From a virus: a stretch of 18,202 bases of DNA. Under the pieces are notes generated by a model. It searched no databases. It had not been told where the DNA came from and saw only the letters and a list, made by a program, of their open reading frames with translations. The translations under genes and the position numbers were made by a program. Each line of letters opens with the position of its first letter. Position 1 is the first letter of the stretch. Positions 223 to 17,504 of the stretch are shown here, piece by piece. The DNA lies in UHGV virus genome UHGV-0153103; one strand, 5' to 3'.

Positions 223-1575
<1,353 letters not shown>

Positions 1576-1625
1576 TCCCCACCTCAATCTCAGTAACCCA
1601 AAAACAAACTATTTTCCGTTTAAAA

Positions 1626-1639
1626 ACAATGGAGTTTGT
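1626..1639. promoter_or_regulatory. Operator OL3 (ACAATGGAGTTTGT)
   Basis: ACAA-N6-TTGT 14-mer upstream of PL. Confidence 0.7.
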
Positions 1640-1656
1640 TTTTTGCACCTCCATTT

Positions 1657-1670
1657 ACAATATTTCTTGT
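1657..1670. promoter_or_regulatory. Operator OL2 (ACAATATTTCTTGT)
   Basis: ACAA-N6-TTGT 14-mer. Confidence 0.75.
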
Positions 1671-1698
1671 TTACAACATACAATCTTTCTTGTAATTT
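1670..1698 (+). promoter_or_regulatory. Putative PL promoter (-35 TTTACA, 17-bp spacer, -10 TAATTT)
   Basis: Sigma70-like hexamers with 17-bp spacing overlapping OL1/OL2, about 40 bp upstream of nutL and 180 bp upstream of N. Confidence 0.45.
1680..1693. promoter_or_regulatory. Operator OL1 (ACAATCTTTCTTGT)
   Basis: ACAA-N6-TTGT 14-mer, 23 bp from OL2, overlapping the putative PL spacer. Confidence 0.75.
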
Positions 1699-1737
1699 TA
1701 AGCCATCAGCAGGACGCACTAACCACCATGAAGGTGA

Positions 1738-1768
1738 TGCTCTTAAAAATTTAGCCCTGAAGAAGGGC
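1738..1768 (+). promoter_or_regulatory. nutL: boxA-like TGCTCTTAA and boxB GCCCTGAAGAAGGGC
   Basis: boxB hairpin identical to lambda nutL boxB as recalled; surrounding sequence closely lambda-like. Confidence 0.8.
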
Positions 1769-1878
1769 AGCATTCAAAGCAGAAGGCTTTGAGTAGCGCG
1801 AAATGCAGCTGCAAGACAGCAACCGTGGAGATAAGCATCACGGCGCGTTACTCAAAGCTAACTGACAGGAGAATCCAG

Positions 1879-2205
1879 ATGGATGCACAAACACGCCGCC
1901 GCGAACGTCGCGCAGATAAACAGGCTCAATGGAAAGCAGCAAATCCCCTGTTGGTTGGGGTAAGCGCAAAACCAGTTAACCGCCCTATTCTCTCGCTGAA
2001 TCGCAAACCGAAATCACGAGTAGAAAGCGCACTGAATCCAATAGACCTTACAGTGCTGGCTGAATACCACGAACAGATTGAAAGCAACCTGCAACGTATT
2101 GAGCACAAGAATCAGCGCACATGGTACAGCAAGCCACGCAGTGAAATGGGTGTGACCTGTTCAGGCCGCCAGAAAATGAAATTAGGCAGCAAACCACTTA
2201 TTTGA
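1879..2205 (+). CDS. N: Antitermination protein N (lambda-type, arginine-rich motif)
   Basis: MDAQTRRRERRADKQAQWKAANPLLVGVSAKPVNRPILSLNRKPKSRVESALNPIDLTVLAEY... is near-identical to lambda N with scattered substitutions; preceded by GGAGAATCCAG-ATG as in lambda. Confidence 0.9.
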   Translation: MDAQTRRRERRADKQAQWKAANPLLVGVSAKPVNRPILSLNRKPKSRVESALNPIDLTVLAEYHEQIESNLQRIEHKNQRTWYSKPRSEMGVTCSGRQKMKLGSKPLI

Positions 2206-2216
2206 GAGGAATTAAT

Positions 2217-2840
2217 ATGTCATCAATCCGCTTAACTACGAGAATGAAAGAGGAAATCGCTCGTAACGCTTTAATTAAGTCTGGGGTTTTCACTGAACTT
2301 GAAGAAGTAACAAAGTTAAAGAACCAGCTTGCACTTGACGCCAGAGTTATTGCGTTTGGCGGTAAAAAGAAAACTGAGGAAGTGGATCAGTTATCATCCA
2401 AGTTAGTAGCTATAAGTGAAGAACTTGAAAAACTGGGATGTTCATTTTACTCATACGATGTTCGTTCTACATCAATTTATCTGACTGTATCTGGCAGAAG
2501 AGTTGGCTGGCATTCATACGGAAAAGACGGCAACGGTGAAGATATATTGCTCCCCACCCCAGAAGAAGATAAATGCATGTTTGACGCAGAACACGAAATA
2601 ACAAAAAGGTTTGATGAAATCTGCGCATTGCAACAAAAACTTGAAGCCAAGAAAAAGGATATCGAATCAAATGTATGGGCTGCTTTGAACTCATTCACAA
2701 CAGTTAAGCGACTTATTGAAGTTTGGCCTGAAAGCAAAGAGTTGCTACCAAAAGAAGCAGATAAAGCAAGTACAGCACTTCCTGCTTTACGGGTAGAAGA
2801 TTTGAATAAGATGATTGGACTTCCTTCCGAGGCCGCATAG
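2217..2840 (+). CDS. Hypothetical protein (207 aa) in the ral/sieB slot between N and cIII
   Basis: ATG at 2217 with GAGAGGA ribosome-binding site; protein-like composition; followed immediately by an intrinsic terminator; no family recognised. Confidence 0.65.
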   Translation: MSSIRLTTRMKEEIARNALIKSGVFTELEEVTKLKNQLALDARVIAFGGKKKTEEVDQLSSKLVAISEELEKLGCSFYSYDVRSTSIYLTVSGRRVGWHSYGKDGNGEDILLPTPEEDKCMFDAEHEITKRFDEICALQQKLEAKKKDIESNVWAALNSFTTVKRLIEVWPESKELLPKEADKASTALPALRVEDLNKMIGLPSEAA

Positions 2841-2855
2841 TCGGCCTTTATTTTT
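2830..2855 (+). terminator. Rho-independent terminator (tL1-like): stem AGGCCG/CGGCCT, loop CATAGT, then TTTATTTTT
   Basis: 6-bp GC-rich stem with the stop codon of the upstream gene in the loop, followed by a T-run. Confidence 0.7.
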
Positions 2856-3064
2856 GGCATAAACAACAGAATAAACACTGCACTGTGTATTCATTCCAAC
2901 GAGTGAATACACGGAGCAATGTCGCTCGTAACTAAACAGGAGCCGACTTGTTCTGATTATTGGAAATCTTCTTTGCCCTCCAGTGTGGGGGCTTTTTTAT
3001 ATGCATACCAATAACGCTTCACTCGAGGCGTTTTCGTTATGCAATCAAACAGAAGGAGCATCCT

Positions 3065-3235
3065 ATGCAACAGTTCGCTATTGCAGGGGCGGCATCGGTT
3101 CGCCCTTTCAACCCGATTTTATCGGTACAGCATTCACGAAAAAATATTTTAACCGGAGCAGACTTTAAACAACCAAGAATGAAAAGTTTGCTCGAAAAGC
3201 TTTGGGATATTTTGAAACAACAAGGCCGTCCATGA
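3065..3235 (+). CDS. cIII: CIII-like protein (56 aa; putative FtsH/HflB inhibitor)
   Basis: MQQFAIAG... N-terminus and ...KSLLEKLWDILKQQGRP resemble lambda CIII (MQYAIAG... ...LIDILNQPG) as recalled; AGGAG ribosome-binding site; position after N as in lambda. Confidence 0.5.
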   Translation: MQQFAIAGAASVRPFNPILSVQHSRKNILTGADFKQPRMKSLLEKLWDILKQQGRP

Positions 3236-3390
3236 GTTTTACGGATAACTGGTCAGACGAAGAATTCATTCGTCAGATGAAAGAATTAATCGGTAACGAA
3301 GGAGATATTCATGTCACTTGCAACCACAGTGAAGGAGAGCAAGTTACAGAGACGCATGTACACGCAGAAAGCTCTCTGGTATCGCCATAA
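3232..3390 (+). CDS. Small protein (52 aa) in the kil position, unknown function
   Basis: ATG overlaps the cIII-like stop (ATGA), as kil overlaps cIII in lambda; the sequence does not match lambda Kil as far as I can recall. Confidence 0.4.
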   Translation: MSFTDNWSDEEFIRQMKELIGNEGDIHVTCNHSEGEQVTETHVHAESSLVSP

Positions 3391-3489
3391 TGGCGACCGC
3401 GAAGGAATGCGGGTATGCCTTAATTTGTCCCGAGTCGAAGTATTAAATCAGCGTTATTTCCTTGGGCCGTGTCCATTCTGAGGTGAATT

Positions 3490-4197
3490 ATGGATTTGAA
3501 CAAATTCGATGAGCCATTCAGCCCTGAAGATATCGAATGGCGAATACAGCAAAGCGGTAAAACACGCGATGGCAAGGTGTGGGCTATGGTGCTGGCTTAT
3601 GTCACGAACCGGGCAATCATGAAGCGCCTGGACGATGTTTGCGGCAAAGCAGGATGGCGCAATGAATACCGCGATATTCCCAACAACGGCGGAGTTGAAT
3701 GCGGCATATCAATCAAGATTGATTCCGAATGGGTAACCAAATGGGATGCTGCTGAAAACACGCAGGTAGAAGCCGTCAAAGGCGGTCGTTCCGGTGCAAT
3801 GAAGCGCGCTGCCGTTCAGTGGGGAATCGGTCGGTATCTGTATAACCTTGAGGAAGGTTTTGCACAAACATCTCTCGATAAAAAGCAGGGATGGCACAGG
3901 GCAAAACTCAAGGATGGAACAGGATTTTACTGGCTCCCTCCATCGCTGCCGGGATGGGCAATCCCAGCATCAGATAACAAACCATCACCAGAAAATACCA
4001 ACCAGAAATCTCCATCGGTTGACTGCGAACAAATCCTGAAAGACTTCAGCGATTATGCGTCAACAGAAACTGACAAGAAAAAACTCATCGAGCGTTATCA
4101 GCGTGACTGGCAATTAATGGCTGGCAACGAGGAGGCGCAGGCTAAATGCGTTCAGGTAATGAACATCAGAGTTAACGAACTAAAACAGGCGGCATAA
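3490..4197 (+). CDS. Rad52-like single-strand annealing protein (Sak/Rad52 family)
   Basis: Motifs VWAMVLAYVTNRAIMKRLD and KGGRSGAMKRAAVQWGIGRYLY are typical of phage Rad52-type annealases; GAGGTGA ribosome-binding site; immediately followed by ssb. Confidence 0.65.
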   Translation: MDLNKFDEPFSPEDIEWRIQQSGKTRDGKVWAMVLAYVTNRAIMKRLDDVCGKAGWRNEYRDIPNNGGVECGISIKIDSEWVTKWDAAENTQVEAVKGGRSGAMKRAAVQWGIGRYLYNLEEGFAQTSLDKKQGWHRAKLKDGTGFYWLPPSLPGWAIPASDNKPSPENTNQKSPSVDCEQILKDFSDYASTETDKKKLIERYQRDWQLMAGNEEAQAKCVQVMNIRVNELKQAA

Positions 4198-4713
4198 ATG
4201 GCAAGCAGAGGCGTAAATAAGGTGATCATTATTGGTCGCCTTGGGCATGATCCAGAAATCAGATATTCACCATCAGGAACGGCATTTGCAAACCTTACCG
4301 TTGCTACGTCAGAACAATGGCGTGATAAGAAAACTGGAGAGCAAAAGGAGCAGACGGAGTGGCACCGCGTGGTAATGAGCGGGAAACTGGCAGAAATTGC
4401 CAGCGAATATCTGCGAAAAGGCTCTGAGGTTTATCTTGAAGGCAAATTGCGGACAAGAAAATGGCAGGATCAAAGCGGACAGGATCGGTTCACTACCGAA
4501 GTCATCGTGGGCGTTGGTGGAACCATGCAAATGCTTGGTGGCAAGCAAGGAGGCAATGAACAGTCTTCACCTCAGCGAAATAATGGTCAGCAACAAAGAC
4601 AGCAACCTCAGCAGCAGGGAAATCACAGCGAACCACCTATGGATTTTGACGACGATATCCCCTTTGCACCAGTAACTCTCCCCTTCCCTCGTCACGCTAT
4701 TCACGCAATTTAA
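4198..4713 (+). CDS. ssb: Single-stranded DNA-binding protein (OB fold, Gln/Gly-rich linker, acidic DDDIPF tail)
   Basis: [44 protein letters not shown]... and C-terminal ...MDFDDDIPF are hallmark SSB features; start abuts the upstream stop (TAAATG). Confidence 0.9.
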
Positions 4714-4721
4714 GGACTTAC

Positions 4722-5270
4722 ATGAATCACTTGATGGTTGACCTTGAAACAATGGGCAACGGGCCATACGCGCCAGTTATTTCTATTGGGGCGGTATTCT
4801 TTGACCCGAATACCGGAGAAACAGGAGAAGAGTTCTCGGTAAATATCTCGCTTGAATCATCAATGCGATATCGAGCGCGTCCTGACGCTTCAACGATTTT
4901 ATGGTGGCTGGAACAGAGTGAAGAAGCCAGAAAATCGCTAACCAGCAACACTCAGGAGCTTTCAACGGCTCTTTCATGGTTATCTGAATTCATCATAAAG
5001 AACGCTAACCACAAATTCGTTCAGGTTTGGGGGAATGGAGCATCATTTGACTGCGTTATTCTCCGAAACAGTTATTCGCTGACAGGGCAGCCAGTTCCGT
5101 GGCAGTGGTGGAATGACCGCGACGTAAGAACAATCGTCGAACTTGGGAAGGTAATAGGATTCGACCCTAAGCGAGATATGCCATTCAAAGGAACTCGCCA
5201 CAACGCGCTTGATGATGCCATTCACCAAGCCAAATACGTTTCAGAGATCTGGAAAAAGTTAGCTAAATAA
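4722..5270 (+). CDS. DnaQ-like 3'-5' exonuclease (DEDDh family)
   Basis: Exo motifs VDLETMG (D-x-E), WGNGASFDCVIL (D) and HNALDDAIHQAKY (H-x4-D); AAGGA ribosome-binding site; an alternative start at 4734 is possible. Confidence 0.7.
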   Translation: MNHLMVDLETMGNGPYAPVISIGAVFFDPNTGETGEEFSVNISLESSMRYRARPDASTILWWLEQSEEARKSLTSNTQELSTALSWLSEFIIKNANHKFVQVWGNGASFDCVILRNSYSLTGQPVPWQWWNDRDVRTIVELGKVIGFDPKRDMPFKGTRHNALDDAIHQAKYVSEIWKKLAK

Positions 5271-5286
5271 TCAACAGGAGAAAACC

Positions 5287-5580
5287 ATGCCAGCGCCTCT
5301 GTATGGTGCGGATGACGCGCGCCGCTGTTCCGGCAATTCCGTATCGGAGGTGCTGGATAAATTCAGAAAAAACTACGATCAGATAATGTCGCTACCGCAG
5401 GAAACGAAAGAGGAAAAGGAATTTCGCCATTGTATATGGCTTGCAGAGAAAGAAGAACTCGAGCGAATTTACCAGACATCAATCCGACCATTCCGCAAAG
5501 CCACATATACCCACTTCCCTGAAATTGACCCGCGCCTGCGTAATTACCGCTCACGCTATGGCGCTATCAGTAATGACTGA
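5287..5580 (+). CDS. Hypothetical protein (97 aa)
   Basis: AACAGGAGA ribosome-binding site, co-directional packing in the operon; no family recognised. Confidence 0.5.
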
Positions 5581-5590
5581 GGAATTTACC

Positions 5591-5755
5591 ATGAGAGGAC
5601 TTGCATACAATCCCGGCATTCTTCCGGCAGAAATGATTATTCGCCAGCGCGTAAAGCCAATGCCATCGAGAGAGGAATTGCTAAAGAGAAATTCTTTTCC
5701 ATCAGTGAATCAAAACAAATATCTGAATGCGATGTGGCGGAGTGGGAAGAAATGA
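5591..5755 (+). CDS. Hypothetical small protein (54 aa)
   Basis: GAGGA ribosome-binding site 7 nt before the ATG at 5591; stop overlaps the next start. Confidence 0.4.
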
Positions 5756-6138
5756 AACAAATGTCACTAATTGAGATGGATGGTTTTCTGAAAGGTAAAT
5801 GCATCCCACGAGATTTAAAGGTTAACGAAACAAACGCTGAATATCTGGTGCGTAAATTTGCTGAAGCGGAGGCCAAGTGCGCGGCGCTGGCAGCGGATAA
5901 TGCGGCGCTTAAACAGTCGGAGAAGGAATTTAATAACTTCTGTCGTCAGGAGTACTACGGTTGGGAGGACAACTTCACGGAAACCCCAGCCACCGATGCT
6001 TTCCTGGCTGAAGTACGGGCGCAGGGTGTGGAGATGGCTATGGAGCATATGCAGTCGAGCGGTTCGTTAACATTTGGAGATTGCTACATATCACTTAACG
6101 AGTTCGCCGCAGAGCTTCGCAAAGGAGGTAACCAGTGA
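5752..6138 (+). CDS. Hypothetical protein (128 aa; an alternative GTG start at 5734 gives 134 aa)
   Basis: ATG at 5752 overlaps the upstream stop (ATGA); coiled-coil-like A/E/K-rich segment; no family recognised. Confidence 0.5.
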
Positions 6139-6434
6139 GTGTATATCTCATTGATAAACGCCGACGTGGGCAACAAATACCACCTGTAGGAATTCCGAAT
6201 CACACATGGTTTTGCGTACTTGATATCGATGGCATGGATAAGTTTGTTGACACTCGTCATTACTGCGATACCGCAACAGCTACTCCGGCGAAAGCAAAGA
6301 AAATGGCTGCTCTGATAGAAAACTGGACTCCACCTGATGGGTGGTGCAATGGGAATGATCGAGATTGGCATGAAAAAATGAAGGGCTATATCTGCGATTT
6401 CTTACGTAAATGCAACGGCTTCAGGGTGATGTGA
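6135..6434 (+). CDS. Hypothetical protein (99 aa, GTG start)
   Basis: AAAGGAGG ribosome-binding site 5 nt upstream of the GTG at 6135; overlaps the upstream stop; cysteine/tryptophan-rich. Confidence 0.5.
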   Translation: MSVYLIDKRRRGQQIPPVGIPNHTWFCVLDIDGMDKFVDTRHYCDTATATPAKAKKMAALIENWTPPDGWCNGNDRDWHEKMKGYICDFLRKCNGFRVM

Positions 6435-6435
6435 C

Positions 6436-7272
6436 ATGAACAAGATTGACTATCAGGCACTGCGTGAGGCAGCAGAAAAAGCAACGTGTGGTGCGTGGTC
6501 GCTCGAATATGGAGAGAACCGATTTGATGGTGATGATGCACTAATTCATCGCGAGGCTGCTGGATATATTCCCATTTGCAGAATTGAAGGAGCACATCCT
6601 GAAAGCGGTTTCGATGAAGATTTCCAAATGGAACAGCAGGCCAATGCTGAATTCATCGCCGCAGCCAATCCGGCTACCGTGCTGGCACTGCTGAATGAAC
6701 GGGAAAGAAACCAGCAATACATCAAACGCCGCGACCAGGAGAACGAGGAAATTGCTCTTACGGTTGGGAAGCTGCGTGTTGAGCTTGAGGAAGTAAAACA
6801 ACACGCTGAAGAATTATCCGAAACCAAGGCTGTTCGTAACCAATGGCGGCCAGATATTTGCCCAATAACCGGACGTACATTTTTCATGTGGATTGAGCAT
6901 CCAACATTGGGAAATGTGCCGACATATGGTGGCCCATTAGATAGTTACACCATTCCAACAAAGGACGGTGACGGTGAGTTTTCATGTGAGCGTTACGATC
7001 ATGATTTTGGCGGTTGGGTAGAAAGCGAATGTCTTGGGTTATATCTGATTGATGATAGAGAACAATGCAGGGTCTACGAACTGGAGGAACGCGTTAAAGA
7101 GCTGGAAACGCGGGAAGTTCATTTGCCGACTCGCTACGGCCTTCGATATGGACATCCGATAAATGATGATGAGCGCCACGTCATGATACCTAAAGAAAAT
7201 GGCAGTTGGCTTTACCTGATTGACCTAGAACACGCATTACGCGTCGCTGGCATTCGCATCAAAGGAGAGTGA
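6436..7272 (+). CDS. Ead/Ea22-like protein
   Basis: N-terminus MNKIDYQALREAAEKATCGAW resembles the conserved start of Ea22-like prophage proteins (from memory); central coiled-coil segment. Confidence 0.55.
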   Translation: MNKIDYQALREAAEKATCGAWSLEYGENRFDGDDALIHREAAGYIPICRIEGAHPESGFDEDFQMEQQANAEFIAAANPATVLALLNERERNQQYIKRRDQENEEIALTVGKLRVELEEVKQHAEELSETKAVRNQWRPDICPITGRTFFMWIEHPTLGNVPTYGGPLDSYTIPTKDGDGEFSCERYDHDFGGWVESECLGLYLIDDREQCRVYELEERVKELETREVHLPTRYGLRYGHPINDDERHVMIPKENGSWLYLIDLEHALRVAGIRIKGE

Positions 7273-7273
7273 T

Positions 7274-7789
7274 ATGGCATTAACACACCGCGAACTCTGT
7301 CAGATTGCGTACAAGTTCCTTAAGCGCAACGGGTTCAAGGTTTGTTTTCATGACCGCTTTATAGCTGTAACCAGTACCGGAGAACAGCCAGATGCTATGG
7401 GATTCAGAAATTCAGCATCATGCCTGATAGAGGCGAAGTGTTCTCGTGCTGACTTGTTAGCAGATAGAAAAAAGCGTTTTCGTAAAAATCCGTCTCTTGG
7501 AATGGGCGACTGGCGATTCTTTATTAGTGAGCCGGGAATTATTTCAATTGAGGATTTACCACCTGGCTGGGGGTTACTTCACGTTGTTAACGGAAGAGTA
7601 CGGAAAGTACATGGGTGGCCCAAGGGTAATTGCTGTTGGGGTAATCCTGACGATAAGCCATTTACTGGAAATAAGCAGGTTGAATGCGATTACATGTTAT
7701 CTGCATTAAGGCGCATGGAGTTGAGAGGGCACCTTAATGAAATATATGACGGTGTAATTGTTAATAAGAAAGAAGGAAACGCGGCATGA
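7274..7789 (+). CDS. Putative PD-(D/E)xK-type nuclease-like protein
   Basis: Candidate catalytic motif GEQPD-AMGF...CLIEAKCS (PD ... E-x-K with about 13-residue spacing); otherwise unrecognised. Confidence 0.4.
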   Translation: MALTHRELCQIAYKFLKRNGFKVCFHDRFIAVTSTGEQPDAMGFRNSASCLIEAKCSRADLLADRKKRFRKNPSLGMGDWRFFISEPGIISIEDLPPGWGLLHVVNGRVRKVHGWPKGNCCWGNPDDKPFTGNKQVECDYMLSALRRMELRGHLNEIYDGVIVNKKEGNAA

Positions 7790-8712
7790 TCACTATTACC
7801 AAAGAGCGACTACTGACAATCAAGCAGTGGCGCGAAACATACGGACCTGGTAGCAACGTTGTACTGCCAGCAGAAGAAGCGGAAGAACTGGCACGAATTG
7901 CTCTGGCAGCGCTGGAAGCCGAGCCGATAGGTTTCCGTTGCAGGCGCAATGATAACCTTGGTGATTGGAGTTACGTATATCATCGAGAGCCAGATGATTT
8001 TGAGCGCAAACATTTAGTGATAGAGGGCATTTACGCCGCCCCTCCAGCACCAGTAGTACCGGAAGAAAAACCAATGCCTAATCCTCTTAGCATGTACGCG
8101 GTTGATGCTGTTGCCGCTATTGCAGAGGTGAGAGGCTGGAACGCCTGCCGTGCCGCTATGCTTCAGTCCGGAAACTTTCGGGAAAACAAGAATTCGTCAA
8201 CCAATAATTTTCGGGAAATCGCGGAAACGTCAACCAACTATCCGGTAATTCCTAGTGAGGTGTTGTCCGCAATCCTGAAGGTTGCCAAGATTCGTGCCGA
8301 TTTCGATGATTTTGACGGTGACAGGCGAGGTATCGGTGATTGTCTGGATGAGGCTGAGCAAGAGCTTATCGTTACCATTAACAAATATGCCAGTCAGTTG
8401 GCAGCAGAACCGATAGCGACTAATGACGTTCGAGAGCAAACAGCCGTTCCGCCAGTTCCGGTAACTCCGGATGGTTGGATAAGCTGTAGTGATCGAATGC
8501 CAGAAATGGGAGAGCGACAATGCTATGTGTTAGCTGCTGACTTTAAAAACAACTACCCACCAAACATCCCCAACACTCAGGTCGGCGTATATGGCGACTG
8601 GTTTAATGATGGCAAGCCCACTTGGGATGACGGTGATGGCGAAGACCTGCATCTCAAAGAAGTAACCCACTGGATGCCGCTACCAGAACCGCCGAAGGAG
8701 GTACGCCAATGA
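7786..8712 (+). CDS. Hypothetical protein with DUF551-like C-terminal domain
   Basis: C-terminal ...GWISCSDRMPE...VTHWMPLPEPPK resembles the DUF551 signature common in lambdoid early regions (from memory); last gene of the plus-strand operon. Confidence 0.5.
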   Translation: MITITKERLLTIKQWRETYGPGSNVVLPAEEAEELARIALAALEAEPIGFRCRRNDNLGDWSYVYHREPDDFERKHLVIEGIYAAPPAPVVPEEKPMPNPLSMYAVDAVAAIAEVRGWNACRAAMLQSGNFRENKNSSTNNFREIAETSTNYPVIPSEVLSAILKVAKIRADFDDFDGDRRGIGDCLDEAEQELIVTINKYASQLAAEPIATNDVREQTAVPPVPVTPDGWISCSDRMPEMGERQCYVLAADFKNNYPPNIPNTQVGVYGDWFNDGKPTWDDGDGEDLHLKEVTHWMPLPEPPKEVRQ

Positions 8713-8798
8713 CCTAGCCTGAAGCATTTGCAATTGTAGTGGCTGCCATTTTGATCGCACTGATTGTTTTTGCGATTTGCCGCTGGGGGTAAAATAGT

Positions 8799-9026
8799 TC
8801 ACCTGCATGGAGATTTGATGCCGGGGAATTGTGGGGGAGCATTCAAACCTCTCCCCTTCCCGGTTAAAGACTCCATTGCTTTGCGGTCAGAGAGATACAT
8901 CAGCTTCATCAGCTTCATCAGCTTCATCAGCTTCATCAGCTTCATCAGCTTAATGAAACGCATAGATCCGCCATGCTTTTTCAGCAAATACGCTGCCATT
9001 TGCGCAACTTTTTCTTCATTAAACAT
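8799..9026 (-). CDS. Small ORF (75 aa) containing (MKL)x6 from the tandem repeat; N-terminus reminiscent of Panacea/DUF4065 (SocA-like) proteins; possibly a truncated remnant
   Basis: MFNEEKVAQMAAYLLKKHGGSMRFIKLMKL...MYLSDRKAMESLTGKG resembles the conserved KLxKLLY N-terminal block of DUF4065 proteins as recalled; no strong ribosome-binding site; protein far shorter than that family. Confidence 0.3.
   Translation of the reverse strand: MFNEEKVAQMAAYLLKKHGGSMRFIKLMKLMKLMKLMKLMKLMYLSDRKAMESLTGKGRGLNAPPQFPGIKSPCR
8898..8951. repeat. Perfect tandem repeat, 9-bp unit CATCAGCTT x 6 (54 bp)
   Basis: Seen directly; in-frame for both strands (ISF on plus, MKL on minus). Confidence 0.97.
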
Positions 9027-9119
9027 AAATCGGCTCTCTGTCTCACATGAAACACTCTTTCTGACTATATGTTAATAGCTCCGGTTATTACAGGTTAATG
9101 TGTGTTTATTTCTTAATCA

Positions 9120-9149: not shown

Positions 9150-12100
9150 TTAATCCACTCCCACTTTTTTGTTGTACTCGCGGTTAAACCGATCCACGGC
9201 AACCTTCATATCCCGCTCTACCGATTTCACCATCGCCGCCTGCTGCGCCAGACTGAGAGAACTGTCGGCATAAATGGCATCGCGCTGTTTGCGCAAATCC
9301 TTCAGTCTCTTCCGGGTATCCTGCATAAGCCCGTTCATCAACAATTTTCCGTTGTTCTCGTCAATGAACGCCGTTCTTTCTGCACCGGTCAGACTCTTCA
9401 GCTCTGCGTGATACTGCGCAACCTCTGTCATCCGGTCGTACATCTTCTGCTGGTCTGCATACGGCATCACCTCACCCGAAATTTTCCCCAGGAAGGGCAC
9501 CTGCTGTTCCGGTATATCAATACCATTCAGCGATTTCACCGCCGCATCCGTGGTTTTGGAAATGAAGCGCCCTGTCCCTCCGGAGATATAGTCAATCCAG
9601 AATTTCAGCGATTCCGGTGTGATATCCACCGCGCCGGGACGATACTGGCTGCCACCTGAGAACGCATTCAGCCAGGATGCAAACGCCTTGTACGCTTCTG
9701 GCGTTGAACGTCTTCCCAGCTGGCTGTCAGGTTTTGGTGTACCAAACGGCATGTTCTCCTGGTAAATCTGCGCCCCCATGAAGTTTTCATTCATGGCAAG
9801 GTTCGCAAACGGACGCAGAATGGTCGGTGCTGCGTTTTTCAGCAATGCCCCCGACAACGTTTCCGACGTCTCGCTGCCGATCGGGCTGAATGCTCCCAGG
9901 ATACCGCCGACAACATTACCGGCAGCACGTGAAGCAGTCAGGTCGCCCGCTGCCACACCTTCAGCTGTATGACCAAGCAGGAAGAACACGTTGTACCCGT
10001 AAGGCAGAGGAATACTCCAGTACTCACCGGCCTTGCCCCCGAACATCGATTTCATGATGACGAGGTTACGCTCTTTCACATGAGACGGTACTTTGTCGTA
10101 CCAGTTAACCCCGTCATCATCCTCACCCGCCACACTGCGGTTAAGCGAGCCAAGCAGATAACCCGCTCCCACAGCTGCAAGCACGATTTTCTGCGGTACA
10201 TTGAGATTCTTCCAGCGAAGGCGCTCCAGTAACGGCCCGTCGCCATTAAGATGTCCGAGCGTTCTCACCAGGTTTGCGGTCCCCTGAATGCTGGCGTTGG
10301 CAAACATGTACAGCGAGTTCATCAGCATCCCCTGCTCACCACGACGGTTAAAGTTCACCGTCATGTTTTTGGCAAGAGACGCCGCCTGCTGGCGTGACAA
10401 ACCGGCATCACGGGCGTGTTTATAGGCAGAAAGACGCAGAGCGTTTTCAACCGCGCCGTTGGCATCCTCGACCAGGTTCAGGAACGAATGCCATGCACCG
10501 ATACTCTGGCCTTTCCATCCGCCCTTCGCCAGCGACACAAGGCGATCCATTTCCTTCTGCTGGCCCTCAAGGTCACCCATGTTAAACCAGCCGGTTTTAC
10601 CTCCGTCCTCAACAAACTCTTTCCACACTTTCTGCCACTGTGCGCCTTTGCCCGTGAGGGTTTTACCCCGCAGACTTGCGTATACGGCTGACATGGCGGA
10701 ACGGCTGTCTTTCACCACAGCCAGCGCGGATAAGTTATCCAGCCCTTTCAGTTTGCCGTCGCTTCTTCCCTGCTCAGCCTTCAGGTTCATCACCGCAGTC
10801 TGCACGTCACGGATGAAGTTACTGACCAGAAATTCCGGGTTATACGACGTGTTCACCGTTGCCAGGAAGCGGTTAACTTTCCCCAGCGTACGGATTACGG
10901 CGTTACTGGTTTCCGGCCCCATGTTCTTCATCGCACGCATCAGGCGCGGATCATGAAGTTTAATGTAGTAAGTTTTGCCGTCCTTTTTGGTGGTGAAGTA
11001 GCGATCCGCCATCATTGCCATCGGCACAGGGCGCTCGACAACTTCGCGAATGGTTTCACCAGTTTCCTGGTCCTTGCGCTCTGCAATCACACGCATTGTA
11101 TCCGGTCTGTCATCAGTGAATACCTGCCAGTAATCCTTGTCGGGATTATCCTGTACCAGTTTCAGGAAGGCGTTACCCACTTCATTTTTGCGATTGCGGA
11201 TCAGCGATTCACTCAAATCCTGTATCGCCTGAGTGGAAGGAGACTGTGCGCGGGATGCACGCCCCATGGCCTGCTTACTTTCACGCCCGCCGATGGTGAA
11301 TCCCTTGCCTGTACGTGGCAGTGACACCACACCGTCAACATCCTGCCCTTTCAGGGGGACGTAGTAACGGTAGGCTTTCTGCCAGGCATCCACCACGCCG
11401 CTCTCTTCCAGTCCTGCCTCACGGATAATCTCACGGCGACGGGCCAGCATATCGTCAATAATCCCTGCCAGACGGTCATACTGTGCCTGTTTGCCGCTGT
11501 TACGCACACGCTGCATGATTTCCGCCGCTTCCGCGTTGGTCATCCCCGAACCGCCGTCCGGCATTTTCGGGTTGATTTTCGCAATATGCGCGTTACGTTC
11601 CGGCGCGTGACGGGCGTAGAGGTACTCATCCAGATCGGCCTGCGCAATTTTGTAGTCCGCCAGCAATTTGGCCAGCGGCTGAACGTAGCGCTCCTTCATT
11701 ACGTTCAGGTCGTTTTCCGCCTTCCCGTGGAAGAGTTCTTCAGCCATATAGGCGTTATTGCTGTCATCTATTTTTCCGCCAGTTTTACGGATATTCTCCT
11801 GCACCGCCTTCAGCACCTGGAATTTATCCTGCATCTGGCGAACAAAACGGGATGCAATTGTCTCTTCCGGCGTCAGACTGCTGGTGCGGGAGTAATACGG
11901 CCCCTTGCGAATATCTTCAGGATAGAGTATTTTATCTACAGAGCCGCGATAAGAATGTTCCCCTTTGGGCAATTGAAGCCCTCTGTGCAGAAGGTTATCG
12001 CGGCTTAATTTTTTCTTCCGGTAAAGCGTTAATCCGGCTTTATCCAGACTATTTGCCTTATTCATTCCTCCTTCCGTACCGTAAACCGAAGCTACCTTGT

Positions 12101-15100
12101 TGATTTCCAGGCGCGACCGGACAGCCTTCATGTGTACCGCTGACACTACAGGATCACCATTTTTATCCATGGCATCAAGCAGCATCACAACCGCATTTCT
12201 TTCTGTCGCGGAACGGTAAATTGCATCCGGATCGTGCATCAGTTCCGGTAGTCTCTCGATAACATCCATCGGCACCACATGTTTCACTCCATTGGTGGCC
12301 TTACGCACAGTGTCGCGGGAGATAACCAGCGGCAAATCTGGTGCGCCAAGGTGACGCAATACCGGCGGCGTACGCCCGATGTTTACCGTTAAATCTGTGG
12401 TGCGCAGAGACTTCATCATTCTGGCAAGGTCATCACGATAACGCTCGCCCTCACCTTCCGGCACTTTGAACGGATCAGGCTTACCGCTACGGGAGTACTG
12501 AGACGATGCGTCCGCGCCATCCTCACGCGGCGTGTAACCTTCCCGCACACGCTGGCCTAACGTGCGAATAGTTTCGCGAACAAGTCTGATATCGTTCAGT
12601 TCCGTCGGCTTCAGTAACCCCGTACGACGCAGTACCCCTTTGACCAGGGCAACAACACGCTCCCATGCCGCCACGAATTTAATCGGCTGCTTCTCTGCCA
12701 TATGCGCCAGAAATTCACCCGCCTGCACTTCCGGTGATTCCTTACCATAAGACGCATCAACCTTACGCCAGGCTTCACGGATGGTGGCGTTATCACTGTC
12801 ACGGGTTTTCAGCACGGTCTTAATAATCGTCTGATATTCCGCTGGCGTGACTACATGCTCCATTGCATGGTGAATAATCTCGTGACGTAACTTCTCGCGA
12901 ACGGTCCGCCCGTCAGGGATGTTATCCGCCACCAGGACAATTTCACGTTTATCCGGACGATAGAACGCGTGCACCTTGCCGTAACCGTCGAATGATTCAC
13001 CCGCCAGTGCTTCAGCCTCTTTCTGTGACTTCACCACGCGGACCTTCAGGTCACTGTCCTTAATGCCACTAATCACGCCACGGGCAACAGCTTCAACCTG
13101 CGGGACCGGACTGCCTTTGGCTTCCGCACTGCGGTTAACATCCGAAATCAGATTGCCTTCAGGTGTGCGGGTCACGCCCTTACGGGAATAAAACGCAACT
13201 CCCTTGTCCGTCTCACGGGTTTTCAGTGTTCGGAACAAGTGATCGAATGCCTCACGAATACCGCCATCCAGTTCTGCATTCGTCGGATAAGCGTAGGTGT
13301 CCGGCTGTCCATGGTCATCCGCCTTACGGATATTGACCAGATAATCATTCTCCACGCCAGCCATACGCGCTTTATCCTGAACATAACGCTCAAAGGCTCG
13401 CGCCGCCATTTCAACATCCGTTGACCAGTACGGTTTTGAACGAACGCCATCCAGGCGTTCAGAACGACGCAACATGTCACTGCTGTTAATGGCTTTCATC
13501 ACGCCTTTAAACGCGTCGTAAACCTCCTGACGTACCGGATATTCCGCATCAACATACCTGCCGTCTTTAAATACGCGCCCGGCACGCTGTGCTTCCGTCA
13601 TATAGTCGCCACCTGACGTGATCTTCCCGTCAGTGGAAACATCATAACGACCAAAATAATTATCCAGTGAATGGAACCATTCGTGGGCCAGCGCCCCCGG
13701 TCCGTTACCTTTTGTCAGGTTGATTGCCACCTCACCCGGCTCATAGTGTGCCGCCGCCTTACCCTTACCACGGGCACCAAAAGCAAGCCCAAGACGACCG
13801 TTCAGAGAAAGCGCTTTTGTCGGCACGTTCAGCACGTCAGCCAGGTCATGCAGCGAGTCATAAGCCCGGTTCAAATCAGCCTGACGACGCGGACTTTCCA
13901 CATAATTACCAAACTGCACACCACGAAAACCAAACGCATCACTGAACTGCTCCGGCGAAACATCCCCCTTGCGGCGTTCTGGTCCGGTACGATCGCGGTT
14001 GGTGGCGTTACGCTGCTCCTCACGCGAGACTTCACGCAGCGCCTTCACCTGATTAACCAGCTCATCACGATGTGTGCGCACATAATCATGTGCATCACGG
14101 GCAGACTCAAAACCGCCCTTCAGTTTCTGCCTGTTTTTGCCATAACCGATAAAAATGTCGCCACTGGCCTTATGCCGGTACACGTCAAAGGTTATTCTGT
14201 CATCAGCAGAGGTTGCTGGCGTTTCCCTTTCTCTGGAGCCTTGTTCATCGAAATATGCTTTCGCCTTTTTCAGTAACTCATCCCGGCTTTCCGAGAAAAA
14301 GAGGTCGCGCCCCTTGCTATCACGAAGCGAATACATCATTTGCGGCGGATCGTAACGTTTTCCCCCGACAAACGAATAAACACCGGACCTGACACGATAG
14401 CCGGATGCTTTATCAATCTGCAATGCAGAAAGCGTACGGAGCAGTTTCCAGGTATCCGACATGCTCCGTAACCCCGGCTTACTGTCCATCATATCAGCCA
14501 GTTTCGCTGCCGGAATTTTCCCCTCCAGCATACCGGCAGTAGCTTCGCGACCGCTTTTAACAATGCTGATCCATTTCTGCATGTTACGGCTTGTTCTGGT
14601 GGGAATTTCACTGCGATACAACGCCATCATTGCCAGCGTGTCACTATCCACACCTTCTTTTTCCAGACGGGCATAATCCGGCTTTGGAAACAGTTTGCTC
14701 AGTGGTTGTGTCGCGTACTCCCCATCCTCCAGCGTTTTACCCATAGCTTCAGCAAGCTGCGCATAACGGTGTTTTGCCGCGCCCTTAATCTCCTCGCCAA
14801 AGTCTTCAATTTTCGCACCACGCGCCTGCTGGTGAGTGCTCGGTTTATCTACCGGCACCGGCACCTCAGTATCCGGAACATCGGTTATGGTCTGGCGATT
14901 ATCCCCGGTCTGTCTGCGTGCTTCTGCCTGCTGTGCCAGTTCCGGAAGGGAGTCACGAACCATACGAGGGAGTGATTCAGGCTGTGGCATATCAACCCCA
15001 CGCTGACTTTCAGGTGCAGGAAGACCTTCACGCACTGGTGCTGTGGCGTTCTGCTCATCCGGTGACGGCAGACCACGACGAACTGTTTCGCCCTCCAGTA

Positions 15101-17504
15101 TTTCCCCCTGGCGACCAGCGGCATTTTCCGGTGCCTGCGCACGTCCTTTCTGGAAACTCTGGCCCTTCACCTCACCGGTTGTGGTAAAACGACCACCACG
15201 TCCGGCCTGATTTTCATCCGGCGTACGCGCTACTTCTCCTGGTAACGGATATCCCTGTCCGGGATGAATATCGCCGGGAGCGGGAAGGCGTGGACGCTCA
15301 GTTAACTCCTGTGCTGTCGGACCGGCATCACCTTCAGCCATCTGGGAACGCACCAGTTCTTCCGCCGTCGGCGCGTTGCCACGAGCAAGACGGGCCTGCA
15401 CTTCTGTATCATCCCCCGTAAAACCACGGAATCGCGGGTCACGCATGAACGCGGGCTGTTCCATCGGATCAGCATCAGTAATACGCTCTCCGTCAGCCAG
15501 AGTGTTAATGGTCTCCGTTGCCACATCTTCAGAGAACGCAGGATTATCCATTTCAACGGCATACTGATTCTCGCCTTTCTTCACTACGGACGGTTTCAGG
15601 CCGGTGGCGCTGGCATTGCGGAAAACGTCGCTCCCCAGAGCACTTTTTTCATCCGTGAAATAACGGTTGTCCGGACGCACCTTTTCAATGCGTTCTGCTG
15701 GTCTGGACGCACCACTCTCGTTAATTTCAATACGAACTTCATCCGGATCGCGGAACCGCACCGTCGGGTAAATACTCCCGTCGCCATCATCCGCATTTTC
15801 CGGCTGTGGCTGTGCCTCCGGTCTGGCCTCCCGCTGAGGGCGAAGCACATCACGTATTGCCTGTAACTGCTGCTCTTCAGTATCAGTACGCCCTTCCTTC
15901 TGGCTGAGTTTTCGGTATTCCTCAAGCAGTTCAGGGCGCGGCTTCGCCTTCAGCTCATCCATCACCGCCTGTCGCTTCGCCTGTTCATCCAGTTCATTCA
16001 ACAGCTGGCTGGCGGCTTCCCGGCGATGAACGGCAGACGTGTCTCCCTCATGTGCCATATCCGCATCAGCATACTGTTCCAGAAGCTGCTCGCGATTCAT
16101 CCCCTGCATAGATTCACGATGCTGTGCCACCGGATCAACCGGTTCGGGTTGCGGAGCCGATTCGTCCTGAGGAACGCTTTCAGCCTCACGCATGGCTGCT
16201 TCATCTGCCGCCTGACGTTTTCCACGATATCCGGCAGCCGCACCGAATGGTGCCCCCATTGCAGCACCAAGGGCTGCACCTTCGATCGTTGCGTCAGCCA
16301 CGCCCTCCCACGGTGACACATCCATTCCGGCGGTCTCACGCAATGCCGTGTTTTCCTGATAGCGTGAATAGCCACCCTGCGCCGCATTAATCGTCCCCTG
16401 TTCCGTGGCATTTCTGACAATGCCGCTTTTAACGGTCTTCGCCGTGCCCCGCATCGCCAGATTAAGCAACTGAGCATCGCCCAGTTTTGCCGCCATGGCA
16501 TTCACAGCCAGCAATTCAGGATCGGTTGCCAGCTGCGCACGCACCTCATCGGCAACACGCTCTTTTGCCAGGTCCATTTTCTGGCGGTCAGTAAGCTGCG
16601 CGTGCTGCGGATCTGCATCAATTGACAAAAAGGTCTGCTGAAATTTCGGTGACTTCGCCAGCTCAGAATAATCCGCGTTAAGAACAGCATCTGCCGCTGC
16701 CATTGCACTCCGCCCTTGCGCACTGACAGTGGAATGGGTGATCAGGCCTGCCTGGAAAAAATCCGGCATTTTTTTATCGACAGCTTCGGCTGCCAGTGCT
16801 GTGGCTCTTTCCGGCTGCATCCCTGCCGCGATGTATTTTTTCTCCAGCCCGGCGGTCAGCACTTTTCGCAGAGTGACATCACCCAGCTTTTTAGTCACAC
16901 CGCCTGCAACCATATCCGGTACAAGCGCACCAATCAGGTTAACCCCTTTCGCTACCCAGACCGCTGAATCATCATATCCTTCAGTCATCGGTGTATTCAG
17001 CGCCCGCTGCGCCCCCGGCGACATCTTGCCAGTCAGCCATTCATCCGAGGCTTTAGCGCCGCCACTGACGGCCTTGCCTGTGACCTTCAGACCTTTACCG
17101 ACAGTATCAGTAACCGCATTTTTTCCATCAGGCAGAGTGTCGATGACCTCATCCGCCCCCTTGCTGCCACCGACAAAAATATCCTGAACAGTTGCGACTC
17201 CCGGCAGCCCCATACGGCTGAACTCATTTAAAATACGTACCCCTGTTTTTACCGGGCTCTGAATCATCGCATCACCGAGTCCACGGGCCATTTCCCCTGT
17301 CCCCCGGACGGACTGGGCGACACCTTTCCCCATAGTTGGCAATACATCGCCCAGGCTGAACGACGTGCTGTTGTCCTTCCAGCGATTGGGATCGGAGAAA
17401 AACACATCATAGCTGTCAGTCTCTCCCGGCTGCTGAATGTTCAGGCTGTTGCGGCTCTGGTTGCCAAATTGCGCTTCAGGGCGCTGTTCATCGGAATAAG
17501 CCAT
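9150..17504 (-). CDS. Giant multi-domain protein (2,784 aa) with two HExxH zincin-like motifs; candidate virion-delivered or polyvalent protein
   Basis: Uninterrupted 8.35-kb ORF; GGAG 6 nt upstream of the ATG at 17504; HEWFH at 13671..13685 (residue ~1274) and HEIIH at 12870..12884 (residue ~1541); Pro/Glu/Gln-rich region about residues 430-900; hydrophobic Gly/Ala-rich segments near the C-terminus (about 10050..10200); no P-loop seen. Confidence 0.85.
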   Translation of the reverse strand: MAYSDEQRPEAQFGNQSRNSLNIQQPGETDSYDVFFSDPNRWKDNSTSFSLGDVLPTMGKGVAQSVRGTGEMARGLGDAMIQSPVKTGVRILNEFSRMGLPGVATVQDIFVGGSKGADEVIDTLPDGKNAVTDTVGKGLKVTGKAVSGGAKASDEWLTGKMSPGAQRALNTPMTEGYDDSAVWVAKGVNLIGALVPDMVAGGVTKKLGDVTLRKVLTAGLEKKYIAAGMQPERATALAAEAVDKKMPDFFQAGLITHSTVSAQGRSAMAAADAVLNADYSELAKSPKFQQTFLSIDADPQHAQLTDRQKMDLAKERVADEVRAQLATDPELLAVNAMAAKLGDAQLLNLAMRGTAKTVKSGIVRNATEQGTINAAQGGYSRYQENTALRETAGMDVSPWEGVADATIEGAALGAAMGAPFGAAAGYRGKRQAADEAAMREAESVPQDESAPQPEPVDPVAQHRESMQGMNREQLLEQYADADMAHEGDTSAVHRREAASQLLNELDEQAKRQAVMDELKAKPRPELLEEYRKLSQKEGRTDTEEQQLQAIRDVLRPQREARPEAQPQPENADDGDGSIYPTVRFRDPDEVRIEINESGASRPAERIEKVRPDNRYFTDEKSALGSDVFRNASATGLKPSVVKKGENQYAVEMDNPAFSEDVATETINTLADGERITDADPMEQPAFMRDPRFRGFTGDDTEVQARLARGNAPTAEELVRSQMAEGDAGPTAQELTERPRLPAPGDIHPGQGYPLPGEVARTPDENQAGRGGRFTTTGEVKGQSFQKGRAQAPENAAGRQGEILEGETVRRGLPSPDEQNATAPVREGLPAPESQRGVDMPQPESLPRMVRDSLPELAQQAEARRQTGDNRQTITDVPDTEVPVPVDKPSTHQQARGAKIEDFGEEIKGAAKHRYAQLAEAMGKTLEDGEYATQPLSKLFPKPDYARLEKEGVDSDTLAMMALYRSEIPTRTSRNMQKWISIVKSGREATAGMLEGKIPAAKLADMMDSKPGLRSMSDTWKLLRTLSALQIDKASGYRVRSGVYSFVGGKRYDPPQMMYSLRDSKGRDLFFSESRDELLKKAKAYFDEQGSRERETPATSADDRITFDVYRHKASGDIFIGYGKNRQKLKGGFESARDAHDYVRTHRDELVNQVKALREVSREEQRNATNRDRTGPERRKGDVSPEQFSDAFGFRGVQFGNYVESPRRQADLNRAYDSLHDLADVLNVPTKALSLNGRLGLAFGARGKGKAAAHYEPGEVAINLTKGNGPGALAHEWFHSLDNYFGRYDVSTDGKITSGGDYMTEAQRAGRVFKDGRYVDAEYPVRQEVYDAFKGVMKAINSSDMLRRSERLDGVRSKPYWSTDVEMAARAFERYVQDKARMAGVENDYLVNIRKADDHGQPDTYAYPTNAELDGGIREAFDHLFRTLKTRETDKGVAFYSRKGVTRTPEGNLISDVNRSAEAKGSPVPQVEAVARGVISGIKDSDLKVRVVKSQKEAEALAGESFDGYGKVHAFYRPDKREIVLVADNIPDGRTVREKLRHEIIHHAMEHVVTPAEYQTIIKTVLKTRDSDNATIREAWRKVDASYGKESPEVQAGEFLAHMAEKQPIKFVAAWERVVALVKGVLRRTGLLKPTELNDIRLVRETIRTLGQRVREGYTPREDGADASSQYSRSGKPDPFKVPEGEGERYRDDLARMMKSLRTTDLTVNIGRTPPVLRHLGAPDLPLVISRDTVRKATNGVKHVVPMDVIERLPELMHDPDAIYRSATERNAVVMLLDAMDKNGDPVVSAVHMKAVRSRLEINKVASVYGTEGGMNKANSLDKAGLTLYRKKKLSRDNLLHRGLQLPKGEHSYRGSVDKILYPEDIRKGPYYSRTSSLTPEETIASRFVRQMQDKFQVLKAVQENIRKTGGKIDDSNNAYMAEELFHGKAENDLNVMKERYVQPLAKLLADYKIAQADLDEYLYARHAPERNAHIAKINPKMPDGGSGMTNAEAAEIMQRVRNSGKQAQYDRLAGIIDDMLARRREIIREAGLEESGVVDAWQKAYRYYVPLKGQDVDGVVSLPRTGKGFTIGGRESKQAMGRASRAQSPSTQAIQDLSESLIRNRKNEVGNAFLKLVQDNPDKDYWQVFTDDRPDTMRVIAERKDQETGETIREVVERPVPMAMMADRYFTTKKDGKTYYIKLHDPRLMRAMKNMGPETSNAVIRTLGKVNRFLATVNTSYNPEFLVSNFIRDVQTAVMNLKAEQGRSDGKLKGLDNLSALAVVKDSRSAMSAVYASLRGKTLTGKGAQWQKVWKEFVEDGGKTGWFNMGDLEGQQKEMDRLVSLAKGGWKGQSIGAWHSFLNLVEDANGAVENALRLSAYKHARDAGLSRQQAASLAKNMTVNFNRRGEQGMLMNSLYMFANASIQGTANLVRTLGHLNGDGPLLERLRWKNLNVPQKIVLAAVGAGYLLGSLNRSVAGEDDDGVNWYDKVPSHVKERNLVIMKSMFGGKAGEYWSIPLPYGYNVFFLLGHTAEGVAAGDLTASRAAGNVVGGILGAFSPIGSETSETLSGALLKNAAPTILRPFANLAMNENFMGAQIYQENMPFGTPKPDSQLGRRSTPEAYKAFASWLNAFSGGSQYRPGAVDITPESLKFWIDYISGGTGRFISKTTDAAVKSLNGIDIPEQQVPFLGKISGEVMPYADQQKMYDRMTEVAQYHAELKSLTGAERTAFIDENNGKLLMNGLMQDTRKRLKDLRKQRDAIYADSSLSLAQQAAMVKSVERDMKVAVDRFNREYNKKVGVD

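Follow-up and report, generated by a model that had tools for sequence, protein, structure and literature searches.

Two distinct zincin peptidase-like modules in the giant virion protein of a Shiga toxin phage genome

The UHGV virus genome UHGV-0153103, analysed here over its full 18,202 nucleotides (the window), encodes on its minus strand a giant polyvalent virion protein of 2784 aa, and two domains in the middle of this protein, each bearing a single HExxH motif, are proposed to be real and distinct zincin peptidase modules with proteolytic function. From sequence comparison and structural models taken together, a probability of about 0.75 is assigned to this reading. That the two domains are distinct zincin modules is, taken alone, highly probable; that both bind metal and act as endopeptidases is probable from the residues they conserve. 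The case draws on the conservation of the motifs, the fold, the family relationships of each module, and the recurrent order in which module 1 precedes module 2. As proposed, two complete gluzincin domains, unrelated to each other in sequence, lie back to back in mid-protein and would be ejected together with the phage DNA.

Motifs, folds and predicted active sites

The initial annotation of this DNA had suggested that two different HExxH contexts might mark tandem peptidase-like modules. Both of the peptides that it quoted lie in one minus-strand open reading frame (ORF): HEWFH occupies residues 1274-1278 (nt 13671-13685) within GPGALAHEWFHSLDNYFGRYD, which spans residues 1268-1288 (nt 13641-13703), and HEIIH occupies residues 1541-1545 (nt 12870-12884) within EKLRHEIIHHAMEHVVTPAEY, which spans residues 1537-1557 (nt 12834-12896); the annotated span, 12870-13685, thus represents the outer edges of the two motifs. 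The protein contains exactly two HExxH motifs, against 0.038 expected from its composition. The suggestion is borne out in that the motifs belong to two back-to-back domains, are conserved in homologues, and are housed in zincin folds, with peptidase activity as a prediction. The ORF and the features of the two modules are as follows.

9150..17504, minus strand: giant ORF, 2784 aa, polyvalent virion (ejection) protein (ORF list and translation)
13224..13991, minus strand: module 1, predicted catalytic domain, CLCA_X-type gluzincin, residues 1172-1427
13746..13748, minus strand: H1253, conserved His ending core strand 2 of module 1 (AAHYE; at least 90% in 90 sequences; strand 1252-1255 of the model)
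13662..13685, minus strand: HEWFHSLD, predicted active-site helix of module 1 (H1274, E1275, H1278, D1281; alignment; model helix 1272-1289)
13428-13430, minus strand: Y1359, invariant, just upstream of the module 1 glutamate helix
13389..13412, minus strand: EMAARAFE, glutamate helix of module 1 (E1365, E1372; invariant residues; model helix 1363-1381)
12408..13124, minus strand: module 2, HExxxH-family polyvalent-protein metallopeptidase by prediction, profile match 1461-1699, confident fold 1470-1604
12867..12884, minus strand: HEIIHH, predicted active-site helix of module 2 (H1541, E1542, H1545, with H1546 at the family Y/H position; model helix 1532-1551)
12747-12749, minus strand: Y1586, conserved, upstream of the module 2 glutamate helix
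12693..12716, minus strand: EFLAHMAE, glutamate helix of module 2 (E1597, E1604; conservation; model helix 1591-1604)

Pfam recognises four domains in the 2784-aa protein, all of them defined for 'polyvalent proteins' (Iyer et al. 2017, PMC5512222), and both HExxH motifs fall outside every match, the first between LPD5 and LPD1 and the second between LPD1 and MuF_C.

13935..14366, minus strand: LPD5, residues 1047-1190 (E 4.5e-43)
13215..13454, minus strand: LPD1, residues 1351-1430 (E 7.5e-23), overlapping the CLCA_X profile match and the invariant Glu helix
12009..12287, minus strand: MuF_C, residues 1740-1832 (E 1.1e-16), PBECR-type predicted RNase fold, non-peptidase
9489..10106, minus strand: LPD38, residues 2467-2672 (E 3.4e-48)

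A search with residues 1190-1440 returned 151 homologues of module 1, many of which are stand-alone proteins of about 335 aa that carry both LPD5 and LPD1; LPD5, the HExxH segment and LPD1 therefore form one unit. In an alignment of 90 sequences H1274, E1275, W1276, H1278, Y1359, E1365 and E1372 are invariant, as are, around the glutamate helix and in the numbering of alignment A2, Y320, E326, A329, R330, F332 and E333, while H1253 and D1281 are conserved in at least 90%. The NCBIfam model NF041907 'CLCA_X' matches residues 1172-1427 over profile positions 3-245 of 250, with an E-value of 5.3e-45 and a score of 153.8 bits. As this score does not reach the 260-bit cut-off applied to the naming of whole proteins, NCBI would not name module 1 CLCA_X; judged by its sequence it is nonetheless a clear CLCA_X homologue below the naming threshold. 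Since LPD1 spans the glutamate helix and overlaps the CLCA_X match, it is the C-terminal half of the module 1 peptidase domain, glutamate helix included, and the end of LPD5 joins the core of the same domain.

The AlphaFold2 model of residues 1040-1445 (predicted local distance difference test score (pLDDT) 86.9, predicted template-modelling score 0.81) fits a single compact unit, in which an N-terminal alpha/beta sub-domain (about 1059-1162, most of LPD5) is packed on module 1. The modelled core comprises helix 1204-1225, three strands, the HExxH helix 1272-1289 and the glutamate helix 1363-1381, and this combination of an N-terminal helix and three-stranded sheet with HExxH and glutamate helices is that of the gluzincin, or clan MA(E)-like, fold. 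The best neighbours among solved structures are MtfA, anthrax lethal factor and PPEP. Pfam run at E<=10 on the isolated core (residues 1190-1350) returned no family, and comparison of the module 1 sequence with all Protein Data Bank (PDB) chains gave nothing meaningful, the best E-values of 0.1-1 being spurious.

Module 2 extends over about residues 1478-1655. When residues 1470-1700 were searched exhaustively against representative sequences, 368 clusters were obtained at E<=1e-3, mostly within proteins of 2000-6000 residues, with a few stand-alone proteins of 210-270 aa. It is this representative search that supplied the diverse set used below; a word-indexed search gave only near-identical enterobacterial fragments of at most about 440 aa. 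Across 147 representatives E1542, H1545 and E1597 are each present in 147 and H1541 in 145, and the auxiliary residues Y1586 and E1604 are found in 139 and 136, respectively. In the AlphaFold2 model the core residues 1470-1604 have pLDDT values of 87-98 and show a helix, three strands, the HExxH helix and the glutamate helix in that order, again the gluzincin arrangement as far as the model goes; matches of the model in BFVD come from unrelated phages and are polyvalent and internal-virion proteins. Neither Pfam nor NCBIfam was found to have a model covering module 2. Pfam at E<=10 on the isolated module gave noise only (for example, Peptidase_M76 at E 0.11), 29 members of its alignment compared with Pfam and NCBIfam pointed to no consistent family, and both sequence and profile, run against all PDB chains, gave spurious best E-values of 0.1-1. 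The family is thus a large one that has no curated profile.

It had also been remarked that the second motif has extra histidines close by. These are indeed present in the sequence; H1546 and H1550 are not conserved in the family, and their candidacy as additional ligands was for that reason rejected. Among the 147 representatives, 63 have Y and 54 have H at position 1546, and position 1550 is mostly N, with the closest relatives themselves differing there (Q, N or K). The inverted HxxEH motif that can be read in HHAMEH (H1546 to H1550; nt 12855-12869) is likewise not conserved in the closest relatives and was set aside as coincidence.

Because both modules have the complete gluzincin set, ligands and general bases can be tentatively assigned. 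In module 1 the metal would be held by H1274, H1278 and E1365, with E1275 as general base and with H1253, D1281, Y1359 and E1372 lining the site; in module 2 the ligands would be H1541, H1545 and E1597, the base E1542, and the auxiliaries Y1586 and E1604. The choice of E1365 rather than E1372 in module 1 is inferred by analogy from the pattern in which a ligand is followed by an acid at +7, a pattern known from LTA4 hydrolase and thimet oligopeptidase (Table 1, PMC3268031). The +7 acids themselves, E1372 and E1604, would then be second-shell partners of the first His, and the upstream tyrosines Y1359 and Y1586 may act as transition-state helpers, as has been proposed for Y255 of ArdC.

The initial annotation had further suggested that the modules are not identical and did not arise by internal duplication, and the comparison of their profiles agrees with this. 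They share the same core topology, and hhalign does place strand and HExxH helix in register, which would favour a duplication; the alignment is, however, limited to 40 columns covering the last core strand and the HExxH helix, with an E-value of 0.016 and a probability of 2.9%. Neither profile, even at relaxed thresholds, detected a second copy of its own module, or any third, cryptic one, anywhere in the protein; the two families differ in their distribution, and each module occurs without the other. A recent duplication is refuted by these results, although within the zincin superfamily the two modules are expected to share an origin in the very distant past. Chance occurrence of the motifs fares no better, with 0.04 expected and both conserved, so that duplication of one peptidase module and chance are, even jointly, hardly credible.

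A zincin fold might also serve a role that is not peptidolytic: it could belong to a metallo-RNase resembling YbeY or to an enzyme of the HExxH oxygenase kind, or it could have a structural or binding function, as in the inactive N-domain of lethal factor. The fold alone would be compatible with any of these; but the N-terminal domain of lethal factor has lost its catalytic motif, whereas in both families here hundreds of sequences keep the full gluzincin set (His, Glu, His, the Glu of the glutamate helix, the upstream Tyr and the +7 acid) with few or no exceptions, which makes such a role improbable.

Family relationships and comparison with known systems

The spacing of the module 2 motif sets it apart from most of its relatives. 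Of the 147 representatives, 138 have HExxxH (for example RHEVIAHHGL and RHEILGHYGL), and HExxHH is restricted to the query and its six closest relatives. The query does not have HEXXXH literally: its HEIIHH aligns as a canonical HExxH, with a gap within the motif, such that H1545 is the invariant His, H1546 the Y/H position, and A1547-M1548 the G-L of the family. In a midpoint-rooted neighbour-joining tree, built without bootstrap and hence indicative only, the HExxHH clade is monophyletic and lies ten nodes deep among HExxxH sequences. Given this nesting and the prevalence of HExxxH, module 2 belongs by descent to the HEXXXH metallopeptidases (MPTases), and from the sequences its canonical HExxH is a secondary, one-residue deletion in an enterobacterial subclade. 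In a scan of genomes for module 2 loci, made with a narrow alignment whose reach is the Gammaproteobacteria, the variants sort by taxon, in keeping with this descent: Citrobacter and Edwardsiella carry HExxHH; the form seen in Pectobacterium, Brenneria, Serratia, Yersinia and Symbiopectobacterium is HExxAHH; Vibrionaceae have HExxVHH and Chromatiaceae HExxGHY. The pair of spacings within one family offers a natural test of the geometry of the active-site helix.

A spacing like that of the module 2 family occurs in dipeptidyl peptidase III (DPP III, M49), in which an EE pair follows some 51-52 residues on and the second Glu is the ligand; the two-lobe fold with HExxGH...EExR(K)AE(D) that goes with it was not found here. 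The DPP III motif is HELLGH-aa52-E, and an engineered HExxH variant, del-DPP III, is still active (PMC3268031), and therefore provides a precedent for a tolerated change of spacing in the Shiga toxin (Stx) phage clade.

The closest published framework is that of Iyer et al. 2017 (PMC5512222), whose polyvalent proteins resemble the protein described here in being giant, multi-domain, delivered with DNA, and furnished with MPTases between other domains; about 8% of them have more than one MPTase. The widespread phage-type class defined in that work has a conserved His ending strand 2 and an Asp three residues after HEXXH, and both are present in module 1 as H1253 and D1281. The HEXXXH form of MPTase in the same work corresponds to the module 2 family, from which the query clade differs in its canonical HExxH spacing. 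LPD5 and LPD1 are treated there as separate domains of unknown function, whereas here both flank, and partly form, the module 1 peptidase. The Stx-phage protein goes unmentioned in the accessible text of that paper, judged by the absence of the phage name 933W.

CLCA_X has been described as a phage and plasmid zincin family, sister to the self-cleaving metalloprotease domain of CLCA (Lenart et al. 2013, PMC3650047). Module 1 shares with it an HExxH followed by Asp, the phage and plasmid distribution, and a frequent occurrence in very long proteins; the published consensus is HExxHxxxD, and in module 1 the Asp stands three residues after the second His. The likeness of module 1 to anthrax lethal factor and the Pro-Pro endopeptidases (M34) and to MtfA (M90) is one of fold, not of family, and no Pfam match to ATLF or MtfA was obtained, even at E<=10 on the isolated segments. 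Neither module is similar in sequence to the C-terminal metalloprotease domain of ArdC from R388 (PDB 6SNA). N4 virion RNA polymerase and P1 DdrB are, like the Stx-phage protein, virion-packaged giants with a zincin domain; compared by description, their other domains are RNA polymerase and ParB-like, as against PBECR and LPD38. P1 DdrB is proteolytically processed before packaging, and the N4 enzyme is packaged unprocessed (Iyer 2017, PMC5512222).

The essentials of these findings are already covered by the polyvalent framework and MPTase classes of Iyer 2017 and by the CLCA_X family of Lenart 2013, and current views are not overturned. The additions are a precise location, with assigned residues, for each of the two apparently intact peptidase centres of the Stx-phage protein, the recognition of LPD1 and the end of LPD5 as parts of a CLCA_X peptidase, the derived HExxH within an HExxxH family, a correction to the labelling of MuF-C, and a hypothesis concerning a linker motif.

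Possible roles of the modules

The stretch from 12500 to 14500, which includes both motifs, is 99.5% identical to the Stx2-converting phage 86 and to the enterohaemorrhagic Escherichia coli (EHEC) podophages phi296 and phi419, and is matched in 186 short-tailed Stx phages (Sepvirinae, Traversvirus). The counterpart in phage 86 is gp35, labelled 'LPD5 domain-containing protein', whose gene closes the block of tail and other late genes and adjoins the integrase. The homologue in phi24B, gp47 (2811 aa), was found in purified virions by proteomics, is invisible in cryo-electron microscopy, and was proposed to be an encapsidated ejection protein, according to the accessible text of the phi24B preprint; the giant protein is not mentioned in the text of a proteomics paper on EHEC phages. 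The giant protein is the largest encoded by the phages that disseminate Shiga toxin, yet databases label it only as 'hypothetical' or 'LPD5 domain-containing'; the mapped peptidase centres, with their mutable residues, offer a handle on the activation of an ejection protein and on the first minutes of infection.

The two domains most likely would cut proteins around the time of ejection. One target could be the 300-kDa polyprotein itself, cut at the linkers between modules so as to free PBECR and other modules; the chance of this is a little short of even. Self-processing of the polyprotein is the main proposal of Iyer et al. 2017 (PMC5512222), and the [FY]SR motifs that follow module 1, module 2 and MuF_C would be candidate cut sites.

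13182..13190, minus strand: Y1439-S-R, first [FY]SR, directly after module 1
12489..12497, minus strand: Y1670-S-R, second [FY]SR, after module 2, in a low-confidence (disordered) stretch (pLDDT <50 at 1668-1681)
11886-11894, minus strand: third YSR, residues 1871-1873, after MuF_C

[FY]S[RK] occurs five times in the 2784-aa protein, where 1.3 occurrences would be expected (P about 0.012), and three YSR directly follow consecutive modules. The site after module 2 is conserved in the family (of 147 representatives, 107 have F and 89 have S in the aligned columns) and lies at a fixed offset, with a median of 131 residues from the active-site motif. It is present in 69 of 125 fused and in none of 7 stand-alone proteins (Fisher p 0.005), and of 66 stand-alone module 1 proteins, which stop before the corresponding segment, 65 likewise lack the motif. 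Over 108 giant homologues [FY]S[RK] is enriched 1.9-fold, and control tripeptides are not enriched. The main text of Iyer 2017 (PMC5512222) makes no mention of a motif of the [FY]SR type. This pattern weakly supports self-processing, and the YSR motifs may be sites of cleavage or 'punctuation'. In its fullest form the idea would be that after ejection both zincins cut the 300-kDa protein at YSR (about 1439, 1670 and 1871) and so free the peptidases, the PBECR RNase-like module and the C-terminal part with LPD38, which we consider doubtful. If it were true, the linker motif would be an undescribed and general 'punctuation mark' of polyvalent proteins, and the Stx-phage clade would be a working natural reversion from HExxxH to HExxH, the counterpart of the engineered del-DPP III.

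Several points weigh against self-processing as the function of the modules. N4 virion RNA polymerase and ArdC have related metallopeptidase domains and yet are delivered unprocessed (Iyer 2017, PMC5512222), and the protease activity of ArdC is dispensable for its known function; a conserved site is therefore no proof of self-processing. Stand-alone modules cannot process a polyprotein in cis, which favours targets in trans. No fragments of gp47 are reported in the accessible part of the phi24B preprint. The YSR motifs could equally be structural caps, the first of them following, and partly lying within, a beta-hairpin that is confidently modelled, and the enrichment of [FY]SR is modest and largely explained by the one conserved site after module 2.

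Alternatively, and compatibly with the explanation preferred here, the modules might be trans-acting effectors that after ejection cleave host proteins concerned with defence, restriction or regulation, or else other phage proteins; this is a tentative possibility, clearly short of even odds, and one of the options listed by Iyer 2017 (PMC5512222). The structural neighbours of the modules, such as anthrax lethal factor, PPEP, IrrE, Spartan and BoNT, are target-specific toxins and regulators, which would suit such a role. The genomic settings of the stand-alone versions would suit it too: the module 1 protein of about 335 aa with LPD5 and LPD1 is found in many phage contigs among small early-type genes, outside the structural module, and the module 2 protein of 210-270 aa in plasmid-like contexts, with an Antirestrict-family gene and type IV CRISPR genes as neighbours and with a relaxase close by. 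The presence of the linker motif in fused versions and its absence from stand-alone ones is, however, more easily understood as cis-processing.

The two modules also travel together. Module 1 is present in 27 of 150 module 2 representatives, always upstream and usually directly adjacent, and 10 of 20 gammaproteobacterial loci carry both in the order 1 then 2. In one plasmid-like contig (L007, 3222-9331) 294 bp separate the gene of a 739-aa module 1 protein from the downstream gene of a 240-aa module 2 protein with HExxxH. The same contig has an Antirestrict-family gene, an ankyrin-repeat gene and type IV CRISPR genes (Csf3/RAMP), and resembles an anti-defence island with the two peptidases as separate, neighbouring genes. 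In two freshwater or metagenomic phage contigs (L002/L003, 6356-9008) genes for Amidoligase_2, GATase_6 and GGACT (gamma-glutamyl cyclotransferase-like) directly precede the stand-alone LPD5+LPD1 gene, a neighbourhood suggesting that the peptidase may be connected with a cassette for peptide ligation or tagging. At five further loci (L014, L015 from Edwardsiella, L016, L022 and L025) module 2 occupies the same relative position and module 1 was not detected upstream of it; the region before module 2 appears to be exchangeable in close homologues of the giant protein.

Podovirus ejection proteins often have wall-degrading activity, T7 gp16 being an example, and the modules might accordingly be imagined to degrade peptidoglycan and so enable the ejected protein to form a trans-periplasmic conduit. 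Such a role has been proposed for gp47 in the phi24B preprint, the one recent study of the giant protein, which, as far as its accessible text goes, places the peptidase in the wrong domain and gives it a function at the cell wall. The preprint credits a 'Muf-C metallopeptidase domain', but MuF_C (residues 1740-1832) has a PBECR fold and no HExxH, the motifs being at 1274 and 1541; MuF-C is the PBECR domain, with a barnase/EndoU/colicin-like predicted RNase fold (Iyer 2017, PMC5512222). The term used in the accessible portion of the 2026 preprint thus appears to be a mislabel. Since the proposal is built on calling MuF_C a metallopeptidase, since neither module resembles the folds of wall peptidases, and since the same modules occur as stand-alone genes in early-type or plasmid-like contexts unrelated to ejection, a role in peptidoglycan degradation is very unlikely.

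Other features of the protein and of the window

Residues of about 840-1140 (nt about 14085-14985) form a hypervariable region, mosaic among Stx-phage alleles, that runs into LPD5 from upstream. Identity between alleles is only 38-83% in residues 840-1140, as against 87-100% in both catalytic cores and 90-100% outside the variable region generally; over the whole ORF no phage record matches at more than 95.9%, in spite of the near-identity of the central stretch to phage 86. LPD38, near the C-terminus, has been reported solely from phage-type proteins (Iyer 2017, PMC5512222). A Gly-rich stretch, GAALGAAMGAPFGAAAGY, at residues of about 406-433 (nt about 16206-16289), gave non-significant matches to Gly-zipper Pfam models (E 0.3-0.7); it could be a membrane-inserting element of the ejection protein. 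A Kyte-Doolittle scan of the 2784-aa protein found no strongly hydrophobic 19-mer.

The plus strand from 542 to 9075 is an early-left phage region, convergent with the 3' end of the giant ORF and separated from it by a gap of about 75 nt. It meets the giant ORF without an integrase, whereas in phage 86 int adjoins the giant gene. The following genes were recognised in this region.

542-1174, plus strand: cI-like repressor (helix-turn-helix and Peptidase_S24)
1789-2205, plus strand: N antiterminator
2202-2840, plus strand: Nmad5
3490-4197, plus strand: Rad52-type recombinase
4198-4713, plus strand: single-stranded DNA-binding protein (SSB)
4722-5270, plus strand: Rv2179c-like 3'-5' exonuclease
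6436-7272, plus strand: Ead/Ea22
7786-8712, plus strand: DUF551

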